From contig JBBSXB010000008.1 in the NCBI GenBank assembly GCA_038046005.1, positions 1-64,000 of the forward strand: a DNA stretch of 64,000 nt. Direction: 5' to 3'. Of this stretch, positions 54,459 to 56,000 are shown piece after piece. Source of the DNA: Nanobdellota archaeon. Its GTDB lineage: Archaea > Nanobdellota > Nanobdellia > Pacearchaeales > GW2011-AR1. A model generated the notes under the pieces. It had not been told where the DNA came from and did no database searches. It was given only the letters and a program-made list of their open reading frames with translations. The position numbers and the translations under genes were made by a program. Each line of letters begins with the position of its first letter. Within the stretch, counting starts at the first letter, position 1.

Positions 54459-54767
54459 ATGGCAATTGGCGCGACTATATTCATTATAATAATCTTGATA
54501 GCTGCTATCTGGATTACTTTAGAATTTAAGAGGGCTAGACATAAAATTTTTGCGATATTTTTGATAGCATTGATTTTGTTTACTTATTTTAGTTTTACAA
54601 CCGCAATTAAAGGAAAAAACATTGACTTGGGTTCAACTTCAGGAATGGTCAAAGCTGGGGGGTTGTATTTTAGCTGGCTTGGACACCTTTTTGGCAATGT
54701 TAAAACGGTAACTGCCAATGCTGTCAAAATGGATTGGAACAACAACAATAAAACTGCGGTGAAATAA
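54459..54767 (+). CDS. membrane protein (..VTxxAVxxDW family)
   Basis: two TM helices; W..HLFGN...VTANAVKMDW. Confidence 0.75.
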   Translation: MAIGATIFIIIILIAAIWITLEFKRARHKIFAIFLIALILFTYFSFTTAIKGKNIDLGSTSGMVKAGGLYFSWLGHLFGNVKTVTANAVKMDWNNNNKTAVK

Positions 54768-54807: not shown

Positions 54808-55011
54808 ATGGTAAAGAAAATTTATAATTATATTGGAATAGGTTTTTGGATAGGAGGAGGCGTTTATAGCTTGATAAATATGATTCTGAATCTTAAAAAC
54901 GCACCCCAAAGTAATATTTTATTTTATAATTATTTAATAACAGGGGTTGCTGTTTTAGGCTTAATTTTGAATATAATTTTAATTAAAAAAAGGGCAGGGC
55001 GTTCTTCTTGA
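54808..55011 (+). CDS. small two-TM protein
   Basis: 67 aa, two hydrophobic segments. Confidence 0.55.
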   Translation: MVKKIYNYIGIGFWIGGGVYSLINMILNLKNAPQSNILFYNYLITGVAVLGLILNIILIKKRAGRSS

Positions 55012-55017
55012 TCTAAA

Positions 55018-55215
55018 ATGAAATTTTTAATGTTAATATTCATGTTTTTTGTTTTGTCTGGTTTGTTAATTATAAGCAATAATAATCTGAATCTTGGCGA
55101 CCATGGAAAATTCCAGGAATTTGGCAGTTTGTGGATTAAATGGGCTGAAAAAATTTCTTCAAATTTAATTTCAGTAACAGGTCATGCTGTTGGTTTGGAC
55201 TGGAACCCTGAGTAA
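55018..55215 (+). CDS. small membrane protein (..VTxxAVxxDW family)
   Basis: W..KISSN...VTGHAVGLDW; similar to the C-terminal part of 54459-54767. Confidence 0.7.
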   Translation: MKFLMLIFMFFVLSGLLIISNNNLNLGDHGKFQEFGSLWIKWAEKISSNLISVTGHAVGLDWNPE

Positions 55216-55217
55216 TA

Positions 55218-55225
55218 TTTAAAAA
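55218..55225 (+). promoter_or_regulatory. TATA box for the micro-ORF array
   Basis: TTTAAAAA starting 29 nt before ATG 55247, the same spacing as aRF1 (TTTATAAA 6754, ATG 6783) and 48011/48040. Confidence 0.6.
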
Positions 55226-55246
55226 GATGAAAGTAGTATAATAAAC

Positions 55247-55386
55247 ATGGAAGGAGAAGGAGGATAAAAAGATGGGAGCAGGTGGCGGTTGTTAGAATGG
55301 GAGATGACTCAGACGGTGCACATTGATAGTAATTAAGATTAAATAAAATGGAGAAAATAAAGATGGGCGGGGATACTGGCTGTTGA
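55247..55386 (+). other. array of four Gly-rich micro-ORFs
   Basis: 55247-55267 MEGEGG; 55272-55295 MGAGGGC; 55297-55326 MGDDSDGAH; 55363-55386 MGGDTGC (or MEKIKMGGDTGC from 55348). Confidence 0.6.
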
Positions 55387-55409
55387 ATTGTATTTACAAA
55401 GTTATAATC

Positions 55410-55727
55410 ATGGCAAAAAAAAGAGTTAGAAGAAGAGTTAGGAAACCTGCTGGAAGAACTGTGAGAGAAGCTAGAGCTCTTGCACAAGCCGGAAGAACAA
55501 TTGCTAGAGTTCAAGAATCACCAAGAAGAAACAGAATGAAAATGGTTGTGAAAAATTTGATTTTGTTTGTAGTCTTGTCTATTCTTTCAACAGTTATAGC
55601 AAGCAGTTCAAGTGATGTAGTCGTGCAACAATCCTTCTGGATACTTGCAATACTTACAGGATTTGTTGCTGTGGCATTGCTTATTGTTGTTCTTGTTTTC
55701 CTATTTATGGGAAGAGCTAGAAGATAG
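55410..55727 (+). CDS. Arg-rich N-terminus plus two-TM membrane protein
   Basis: MAKKRVRRRVRK..; two C-terminal TM helices. Confidence 0.75.
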   Translation: MAKKRVRRRVRKPAGRTVREARALAQAGRTIARVQESPRRNRMKMVVKNLILFVVLSILSTVIASSSSDVVVQQSFWILAILTGFVAVALLIVVLVFLFMGRARR

Positions 55728-55810
55728 TTTTATTTTATTTTTTATTTATAATTCTTATAATTTAGTGTAAGGTTTATAAAATGGTTTTTGTATAAAATTT
55801 TGATTTATTT

Positions 55811-55879
55811 ATACCAGTAGCTCAGTCGGTAAGGAAAACTTTGTTGGATGAGCTTGTTTTCAACCGCCTGAGCGGGTAT
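55811..55879 (+). ncRNA. hairpin leader abutting the tRNA-Thr 5' end
   Basis: ATACC/GGTAT, GCTCAG/CTGAGC, CGGT/ACCG, GAAAAC/GTTTTC nested pairs; contains a 16-nt copy of tRNA nt 6-21. Confidence 0.55.
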
Positions 55880-55952
55880 GCCTGAGTAGCTCAGTCGGTA
55901 GAGCGTTACCTTGGTAAGGTAGAGGTCCCGAGTTCAATCCTCGGCTCAGGCT
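55880..55952 (+). tRNA. tRNA-Thr(GGT)
   Basis: GCCTGAG/CTCAGGC acceptor, TTACC-TT-GGT-AA-GGTAG, CCGAG-TTCAATC-CTCGG. Confidence 0.95.
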
Positions 55953-56000
55953 TTCTTTTTTAAAAGCAAGTCTTATAAATATTAATATATTGTACTACTA

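Follow-up and report, generated by a model that had tools for sequence, protein, structure and literature searches.

Tandem very short open reading frames upstream of a small membrane-protein gene in a DPANN archaeon: a candidate leader of chained, leaderless uORFs

Leaderless short open reading frames (ORFs), whose start codon opens the transcript, were reportedly described in mycobacteria by Shell et al. A comparable layout is considered here in a Nanobdellota archaeon of the DPANN lineage (genome G000; assembly of 874,611 bases in 15 contigs, 98% complete, 33.4% GC). The stretch analysed, referred to as the window, consists of the first 64,000 nucleotides of contig JBBSXB010000008.1 (C8:1-64000). 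It contains a G-rich island that occupies the 194-nt gap 55216-55409 between two small membrane-protein genes, DW65 on the left and MAKK on the right. The island is made up of a tandem array of mini-ORFs, which are treated below as candidate upstream ORFs (uORFs) in the leader of MAKK, the gene that the leader serves.

In mycobacteria, leaderless short ORFs act as first cistrons that control the genes downstream, according to Canestrari et al. (10.1101/834739). The likeness lies in a transcript that opens with the start codon of an unannotated, amino-acid-biased short ORF, which precedes and controls the downstream gene, both the transcript start and this control being predictions in our case. 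The locus differs in being archaeal, in having ORFs of 6-12 codons of which three to eight are chained, and in a bias towards Gly, Asp and Glu, not Cys. Moreover, MAKK encodes a membrane protein without known function, whereas the mycobacterial downstream genes form a metabolic operon. Since no RNA duplex that would sequester the downstream start is predicted here, the mycobacterial attenuation mechanism is not transferable. The array is also unlike the amino-acid-sensing attenuators, because no alternative RNA structure is found (folding z of +0.38 and +1.50, no RNAalifold pairs) and because, although Gly accounts for 52 and Asp plus Glu for 47 of the 202 codons in the eight leaders of this kind, MAKK is a basic protein with two transmembrane (TM) helices and not a metabolic gene.

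An engineered leaderless bicistronic design in Corynebacterium glutamicum requires both translation of the fore-cistron and a Shine-Dalgarno (SD) sequence, according to PMC10367133. Its layout, with a fore-cistron at the 5' end that carries the next SD in its own 3' end and stops beside the next start, is found exactly in one relative, L073 (ATG GAA GGT GAA GGA GGT TAA G ATG), and at the passage from uORF1 to uORF2 in G000. By analogy, L073 would be a natural one-step version of the design. Unlike the engineered one, the archaeal form is natural and multi-step, and the final passage to MAKK in G000 lacks both an SD and a tight junction; coupling is predicted. Archaea and bacteria are known to couple translation by termination-reinitiation (PMC7531240, citing Huber et al. 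2019; reviewed in PMC12548453). In such coupling, stop and start lie a few nt apart and an SD motif within the upstream ORF aids reinitiation, as would be the case here. The known cases couple full-length neighbours, often with overlapping stop and start, whereas the present ORFs encode 6-9 residues, are separated by gaps of 1-4 nt and stand in series. How leaderless initiation and reinitiation proceed in archaea is still not clear (PMC7531240).

A search of open-access text, limited in extent, yielded no description of tandem mini-ORF leaders in archaea. Short-ORF leaders of the leaderless type, bicistronic coupling and termination-reinitiation are already established, and the archaeal chain would be a variant of these. 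Tandem, very short and related ORFs on a single RNA are also a feature of Drosophila tarsal-less (polished rice), the peptides of which are conserved in sequence and act in trans. The array shares with it the several related short ORFs in tandem, predicted to lie on one RNA, but its peptides differ between congeners and it is tied to one downstream gene. Precursors of ribosomally synthesized and post-translationally modified peptides (RiPPs) resemble it in being small encoded peptides, some of which here end in Cys or Gly-Gly. Unlike them, the array has no leader/core layout, no adjacent modifying enzyme and no conservation within the genus, and its peptides have only 6-9 residues.

The promoter and the mini-ORFs

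The promoter abuts the stop codon of DW65. Its TATA box, TTTAAAAA (55218..55225; + strand, as for all features of the array), has TTTAAA at 55218, 29 nt before the ATG of uORF1 at 55247. This spacing is a modal one in G000: among 959 crude gene starts, 153 have TTTAWA at -29 and 77 have it at -27. Of 403 ATGs positioned by a TATA box, 289 begin an ORF that is 60 codons long or longer. A TATA box at -31 to -25 precedes 159 of 451 first genes versus 16 of 281 operon-internal genes, and TTTAWA is mostly found 26-40 nt before the mature 5' ends of tRNAs.

In most relatives the gap between the DW gene and MAKK is 27-46 nt long and consists of TATTTAWAAA right after the DW stop, about 22 nt, and the MAKK ATG, the leaderless type of layout that predominates in G000. 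A strict TTTAWA lies 26-31 nt before this ATG in 73 of the 151 distinct loci that were read upstream. In G000, what lies 29 nt from this TATA (55218) is instead the uORF1 ATG, in the place that the MAKK ATG takes in those relatives where 31 nt separate the two genes. Since the TATA and spacing that serve MAKK in relatives lead to uORF1 here, the array would be an insertion between the old leaderless start and MAKK. The 31-nt promoter is identical at 27 of 31 positions between G000 and its congener G001. In six of the eight leaders of this kind the first mini-ORF ATG is exactly 29 nt from TTTAWA; the distance is 30 nt in G100 and 24 nt in L071. No run of four or more T lies between 55247 and 55410. 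Nor was a terminator-like site found there, in a scan with sigma-70 and intrinsic-terminator models that for an archaeon is informative only on the absence of a hairpin terminator. In L073, G100 and G176 there is no space for a separate MAKK promoter.

A preliminary description of the island, made from the sequence alone, had listed ORFs, spacings and motifs, and all of them are present at the positions it gave. uORF1 (55247..55267) encodes MEGEGG from what is probably a leaderless, 5'-terminal start. Its last two codons contain the SD-like GGAGGA (55259-55264), 8 nt before the ATG of uORF2. The latter (55272..55295, MGAGGGC) begins 4 nt after the uORF1 stop and contains GGTGGCGG; GGTGG and GGCGG stand 11 and 8 nt before the ATG of uORF3. 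This third ORF (55297..55326, MGDDSDGAH) begins 1 nt after the uORF2 stop and ends in three in-frame stops, TGA TAG TAA (55324-55332). They lie within a stop-rich element, ATTGATAGTAATTAAG, which is conserved in G001. The first three starts (55247, 55272 and 55297) are thus spaced by 25 nt and fall in three different frames.

uORF4 may be read either from an ATG at 55348, as MEKIKMGGDTGC, or from the in-frame ATG at 55363, as MGGDTGC, to its end at 55386. A GGAG (55350-55353) is located 9 nt before the second of these starts, and the first is 21 nt from the uORF3 stop. uORF4 lies in 64 nt that are absent from G001 and is in this sense species-specific; it resembles the last unit of G001 (ATGGGA..GATACT) in a MAFFT alignment. 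AAAGATGGG is found before both uORF2 and uORF4, and all four Gly codons are used in the array. Two further ATGs occur, one at 55304 that opens an overlapping MTQTVHIDSN and one at 55227 (MKVV) within the promoter spacer. uORF4 is followed by an AT-rich spacer of 23 nt (55387..55409) devoid of any SD-like motif, of which ATAATC-ATGGCAAAAAAAAGAG is kept in G001 and L071, and then by the MAKK ATG at 55410.

The island is G-skewed, not GC-rich: its GC content is 0.36-0.40, compared with 0.334 for the genome, and its GC skew +0.50 to +0.65. Two imperfect direct repeats are present. The promoter segment 55220-55236 recurs at the uORF1/uORF2 junction (55265-55281) with 14 of 17 positions alike, and the DW-stop/TATA segment 55209-55226 recurs at 55384-55401 with 14 of 18. 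Contigs from four DNA runs show only the window's own sequence and a co-occurring G001-like form (152-nt skip, 88 other letters, in run X5); no polymorphism within the G000 leader was seen in these runs.

Homologous leaders and what they conserve

Leaders with Gly/Asp/Glu-rich mini-ORFs were found in 8 of the 151 distinct loci, in at least five genera and always preceding MAKK. The 151 are the loci examined, drawn from GTDB genomes and metagenome contigs after removal of 13 duplicates and of one locus short of upstream sequence; about 50 further MAKK-positive family genomes, from a profile search, lie outside this sample. As for MAKK itself, a single protein query detected a homologue in 53 of the 121 family genomes sampled, and a profile of six rows did so in 177 of 401. 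Searches for same-genus relatives around G176 and G071 returned those genomes alone.

The number of units per leader ranges from 1 to about 8, a variation in relatives that the preliminary description had put forward as something to look for. G001 has MDFPNGG, MEGDSDG (at the same offset as uORF2) and MGIDTN. L071, assigned to the same genus by a MAKK identity of 88%, has different frames, among them MKTNFGGGDGG and MGLNLMDMG. G071 carries MERMGTEDGG, a unit with ATA in place of ATG, an SD-led 24-codon hydrophobic ORF ending in MDVGG, MGAGDSA, and a unit with ATT in place of ATG. Seven or eight ORFs are found in G176, including MNDDEN, MEGEGG, MGAGADGS, MGAGDSG and a 19-codon piece. The remaining three leaders have a single unit that abuts MAKK: MEGEGG in L073 (TAA G ATG), MEGDDSC in G100 (TAA GA ATG) and a 19-codon ORF beginning MGDETS in G202 (TAA-C-ATG). 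In L073 the order is TATA, 21 nt, ATGGAAGGTGAAGGAGGTTAAG and the MAKK ATG; the leaderless 6-codon ORF has its GGAGGT 4 nt ahead of the start of MAKK. Four further relatives have no more than a start-stop, ATG-TAA or ATG-TAG, close upstream of MAKK: L146 (G237), L024/L097 (G107), L086 and L075/L076. In the first three an SD-like stretch (AAGGAG, GAGG, GAAGGA) lies between the start-stop and MAKK or just upstream, and L075/L076 has only ATG-TAG-GTAAG-ATG. These bare start-stops look like minimal or decayed versions of the leader.

The 24-codon ORF of G071 (L022, about 1351-1425; MKKLLYLLFGIIIWLGPRVMDVGG) is preceded by an SD and encodes a TM-like peptide, and its last five codons are a Gly-rich unit. 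Upstream of this leader, part of the record is a run of N.

The homology is restricted to the MAKK locus. BLAST of the G000 leader against its own genome yielded no second copy (next best E = 0.09). Likewise, BLAST of the G176 leader against the genomes of G001, G071, G100, G176 and G202 detected no copy beyond the MAKK leaders, the one notable match being the G071 MAKK leader (E = 0.0016). In a FastTree phylogeny of 154 MAKK proteins, which is based on few columns and has many unresolved forks, six of the eight leaders fall in one 13-row clade (SH-like support 92) that also includes loci without the leader. G100 and G202 fall outside this clade, and L094, the sister of G100, has no insert.

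The congeners G000 and G001 have the junction motifs and the SD-like GGAGG in common, and both leaders have an ATG at offsets 31, 56 and 81. Their peptides are not conserved (MEGEGG, MGAGGGC, MGDDSDGAH and MGGDTGC versus MDFPNGG, MEGDSDG and MGIDTN). A stretch that aligns well, ATTGATAsTAATTAAkATT, is read in different frames in the two genomes. The leaders are identical at 68 of 99 aligned columns, close to the value for third codon positions of the flanking genes (0.65-0.75), the first and second positions of which are 0.89-0.95 identical; 64 nt of insertions and deletions (indels) come on top of the substitutions. For DW65 alone, 85% identical between the two genomes, the codon-position identities are 0.92/0.94/0.70. 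The preliminary description had proposed conservation of ATG and stop positions as a check on the array; the three ATG offsets and the junctions are kept in G001, but the frames of L071 are broken and two G071 units lack an ATG.

Across genera the picture is different for some units. MEGEGG is identical in G000, G176 and L073, with changes confined to third positions and the stop codon. Of its 21 nt, 19-20 agree between lineages in which MAKK identity is only about 40% at the protein level and the promoter spacers are unalignable. MGAGDSG of G176, MGAGDSA of G071 and MGAGGGC of G000 differ at third positions in codons 2-4. In four unit alignments hand-picked by eye, 14 of 24 minimal changes fall at codon position 3 (binomial p = 0.010). 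These third-position changes bear out in part the suggestion of the preliminary description that the use of all four Gly codons hints at selection on the peptides. The conserved letters of MEGEGG, however, are also the SD-like GAAGGAGG, and constraint on this motif explains the conservation equally well. We conclude that it is the entry ATG, the stop/start junctions and the SD-like purine runs that are kept, and not the peptide sequences.

Counts over the eight leaders were compared with 2000 shuffles, mononucleotide for the number of ATGs and dinucleotide for codons beginning with G (GNN). These figures overstate the independence of the data, as the leaders are akin to one another and units arise by duplication. 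The ATG count, 40, is not enriched over the shuffle mean of 35.1 (341 of 2000 shuffles reach it). The clean parsing into ATG-to-stop units is therefore largely what an A/G/T-rich sequence gives. ATGG contexts, in contrast, number 23 versus a mean of 7.5, a count that none of the 2000 shuffles reached. Motifs with a stop followed within 0-4 nt by an ATG number 31 versus 15.5 (reached once in 2000), and gaps of at most 4 nt from a stop to the next ATG along the relay 13 versus 7.4 (61 in 2000). In-frame GNN codons make up 114 of the 202 codons of the relay ORFs, against a mean fraction of 0.33 that no shuffle raised to this level; taken singly, G000 has 21 such codons in 30, which 20 of 2000 shuffles attained, and G176 has a value attained by 1 of 2000. 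The 875-kb genome has 8496 mini-ORFs of 5-13 codons, of which only 12 combine an intergenic position with a GNN share of at least 70%; the adjacent uORF1, uORF2 and uORF3 account for three of them.

Possible roles of the leader

We favour, with a confidence somewhat better than even, the reading that the island is a fast-evolving, lineage-specific 5' leader of the MAKK mRNA, in which leaderless uORFs form a relay acting in cis and the peptides are not genes in themselves. A uORF relay for the gene at 55410 had been the fallback of the preliminary description and turns out to fit best: uORF1 sits at the ancestral leaderless start, the arrays occur only before MAKK, and single units abut the MAKK ATG in L073, G100 and G202. 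The following course of events, from the point at which transcription starts to uORF translation, reinitiation and the consequence for MAKK, is predicted from the sequence. Transcription directed by the TATA box at 55218 would start on the A of the 55247 ATG or beside it, so that the RNA begins with a start codon, as in the many leaderless genes of this organism. A ribosome would load on this 5'-terminal AUG, translate the six codons of uORF1, terminate over the SD-like GGAGGA and restart 4 nt further on at uORF2, then 1 nt further on at uORF3. Past the stop cluster that follows uORF3, some ribosomes might proceed by renewed SD-guided binding at uORF4 or by reinitiation. The MAKK AUG, with no SD of its own, would receive those that pass. 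The array would thereby be a chain of fore-cistrons that sets, probably by lowering or conditioning it, the number of ribosomes at MAKK. The peptides would be by-products, their richness in Gly, Asp and Glu stemming from a purine-rich, GGAGG-like, GNN-periodic and non-folding RNA that pairs with the anti-SD. Growth and shrinkage of the array would occur by local duplication and deletion between recurring (A)ATGG junctions.

The organism appears to use both modes of initiation. Besides the TATA boxes of first genes, SD-like GGAG, GAGG or GGTG at -16 to -4 are found at 73 of 281 operon-internal starts versus 50 of 451 first genes of G000, and the 16S rRNA of the family member G202 ends in GGATCACCTCCT, with CCUCC at its 3' end. 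It is because TATA boxes at first genes and SD motifs at internal genes point to both modes that the array is read as a leaderless-entry chain.

Should this be correct, the locus bears on a question about which little is known, namely how archaeal ribosomes reach an internal start on an mRNA that opens with another start codon. The relatives would offer reporters a natural series: no leader; a start-stop with an SD; one SD-bearing fore-cistron of 6-7 codons; chains of three to eight. With such a series, leaderless loading, SD-assisted reinitiation and decay per step could be measured. The locus would also be an instance, in a nearly unstudied DPANN lineage, of a leaderless gene that gained a leader while its old start codon was kept as the ribosome entry. 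For annotation it carries a warning that clean arrays of tiny Gly-rich ORFs may stem from SD-like purine repeats and not from peptide genes.

Several observations weigh against the relay. The last two hand-overs are loose: the ATG at 55348 follows the uORF3 stop at a distance of 21 nt, and the SD-less MAKK ATG is 23 nt away from the end of uORF4. At these points the relay would leak badly or fail. G001, and perhaps G071, have an AT-rich, TATA-like stretch about 30 nt before MAKK, which could give MAKK its own leaderless transcript and make the array dispensable. In L071 the first ATG, 24 nt from TTTAWA, opens a 21-codon frame that overlaps others. The anti-SD evidence comes from G202, as no small-subunit (16S) rRNA gene was found in the G000 assembly in spite of its completeness; among five relatives searched, the gene was found in G202 only and not in G001, G071, G176 or G100. 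The leader is confined to 8 of 151 loci and patchy even inside the 13-row clade; any function it has is therefore dispensable. Much of the statistical signal can have been inherited through unit duplication instead of being kept by selection, and the near-neutral divergence within the genus is equally expected of a leader without function.

The last points lead to the rival that survives best, which we regard as possible but doubtful. It holds that the leader is neutral and duplication-prone: an accidental expansion next to the promoter, tolerated since MAKK can still be expressed, and produced by slippage between ATGG/AAAGATG repeats, whose ATG, stop and GNN pattern comes from one founding unit and has no regulatory role. 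The divergence of G000 and G001 at the synonymous rate (0.69 versus 0.65-0.75) with its 64 nt of indels is as this rival would have it, and so are the two local duplicates (55220-55236/55265-55281 and 55209-55226/55384-55401), the broken frames of L071, the ATG-less units of G071, an ATG count no higher than composition gives, and a patchy presence, for which the MAKK tree calls for no fewer than 3 and as many as 7 changes. A neutral leader fits less well with the near-identity of the MEGEGG unit across lineages with so divergent MAKK proteins and spacers, or with the exact 29-nt spacing from TATA to first ATG in six of eight leaders. The MGAG(D/G)(S/G)x units differ mainly at third positions (the hand-picked 14 of 24 changes), and an insert of nearly identical type occurs in G100 while the sister locus L094 and the nearest relatives are without it; both facts also speak against neutrality.

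A more speculative reading, to which we attach a low probability, makes the array a ribosome-run sensor or a peptide factory peculiar to these host-dependent archaea. The serial Gly/Asp/Glu-codon mini-ORFs would gauge the supply of charged tRNA or of ribosomes, gating MAKK via serial reinitiation in place of an RNA switch, or else the acidic Gly-rich peptides would act in trans on the MAKK tail or the DW proteins.

That the peptides are the functional products was the headline claim of the preliminary description, which saw in them a polycistronic set of micropeptides, RiPP-like, metal-binding or signalling. The corresponding rival, with acidic Gly-rich hexa- to nonapeptides, some ending in Cys, that act on the MAKK tail or the neighbours or serve as signals or metal ligands, is in our view improbable. 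It draws on a coding-like periodicity of the array frames, in which the G content is 0.56/0.37/0.15 at codon positions 1/2/3, the third position being A/T-rich. The in-frame products contain 26% Gly (52/202 codons), 23% Asp plus Glu (47/202) and 9% Lys plus Arg, versus 14% and 26% Lys plus Arg in the other two frames. Identical or near-identical peptides recur across genera with synonymous changes, and the array is always beside the same three small membrane-protein genes. The periodicity, however, is inheritable by duplication. Congeners have different peptides, in leaders whose divergence is close to the synonymous rate; a leader may hold anything from 1 to about 8 units; and some units have no ATG. 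At 143 of the 151 loci the same membrane genes are found with no such Gly/acid-rich array (an assignment made partly by inspection). Neighbour annotation confirms that no modifying enzyme is adjacent, as the preliminary description had itself remarked, nor does any processing or export gene adjoin the array. If the peptides did act in trans, this would be the first polycistronic micropeptide array described in archaea.

Still less credit is due to a nucleic-acid element, be it a non-coding RNA, a protein-binding purine-rich or G-tract RNA (two-tier G-quadruplex), or a DNA element downstream of the start site. The dense G-runs GGAGAAGGAGG, GGGAGCAGGTGGCGG and GGGCGGGG would suit it, as would the ATTGATAsTAATTAAkATT stretch that is kept in G000 and G001 despite the different frames. 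The G-tract patterns, in contrast, are not kept across leaders, G100 having only three GG runs, and no terminator precedes MAKK. Rfam at the gathering score gives 3 tRNAs only; of 8 matches at E <= 10 in 54900-56000, none lies inside 55216-55409. Single-sequence folding of both strands is no better than that of shuffled sequences (z +0.38, 128 of 200 shuffles folding as well; z +1.50, 191 of 200), and RNAalifold over five leaders predicts 0 pairs. A structured RNA (riboswitch, small RNA or C/D box) was dropped as a reading in view of the Rfam, folding and RNAalifold results.

A decayed, longer Gly/Asp-rich small-protein gene broken by frameshifts is highly improbable: although the segments show coding-like periodicity in three frames, and G176 has its 19-codon piece and the G071 leader its SD-led hydrophobic ORF of 24 codons, no intact longer Gly/Asp-rich ORF was seen between DW65 and MAKK in the 151 loci (ORFs of 25-40 residues in long gaps being judged by eye), every segment opens with an ATG right behind the stop of the one before, a pattern not expected from decay, and the minimal one-unit forms are located exactly at the start site.

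Two other candidates were rejected. A tandem or dispersed mobile repeat was discarded, since Tandem Repeats Finder gave 0 rows at a score of at least 30, leaving only the two short imperfect direct repeats, and there is no other copy in G000 or in 5 relatives outside the MAKK leader. A 110-codon antisense frame (55182-55514) crosses two conserved genes in antisense on a pyrimidine-rich strand; the G001 frame has 51 codons, and the two species differ in length by 64 nt, a number not divisible by three. It is an artefact of the pyrimidine-rich opposite strand.

Flanking genes and side observations

MAKK (55410..55727, + strand) encodes an Arg-rich protein of 105 amino acids, with a strongly basic N-terminal tail and two TM helices. 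Pfam gives nothing above threshold for it (CrgA, 14.4 bits versus a cut-off of 24.8; DUF2207_C, 14.1 versus 33). The layout of a basic tail and two TM helices is CrgA-like, though the CrgA score is below the Pfam cut-off. A T-rich stretch (55728-55760) directly follows the gene, and a tRNA-Thr gene (55880-55952) lies downstream.

DW65 (55018..55215, + strand; 65 amino acids, C-terminus ITGHAVGLDWNPE) and DW102 (54459-54767) are paralogous small membrane proteins with a common C-terminal (V/I)TxxA(V/I)xxDW motif, and neither matches a Pfam family above threshold. The gene order DW102-DW65-MAKK is kept across the family. Between the two DW genes, G000 has a small hydrophobic ORF of 67 codons (54808-55011, + strand; starting MVKKIYNYIGIGFWIGGG), which is absent from G001, where this interval measures about 12 nt as opposed to about 266 nt. 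By eye, its N-terminus resembles the 24-codon SD-led ORF in the G071 leader (MKKLLYLLFGIIIWLGPRV). Small membrane-protein genes appear to turn over fast at this locus. The neighbourhood comprises small membrane proteins that match no family, one protein with a VTT domain and one with a LamG domain, the PheRS beta subunit and tRNAs.

Elsewhere in G000, two identical intergenic GNN-rich mini-ORFs, MVGGC, lie 1045 nt apart on contig C3 (69364-69381 and 70409-70426, - strand) and probably mark a local repeat.

About 75 nt upstream of the tRNA-Thr gene, and soon after a TTTATAAA box, the + strand carries a 16-nt exact copy of the 5' part of this tRNA (AGTAGCTCAGTCGGTA, within 55806-55826). ARAGORN and Rfam call the downstream tRNA-Thr only. 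The copy may stem from a partial duplication or have been left behind by a rearrangement. In two relatives, the homologue of this tRNA-Thr matches in two pieces about 32-60 nt apart (G003:C1:480528-480637 and G009:C23:3819-3954), which suggests an intron-containing tRNA gene.

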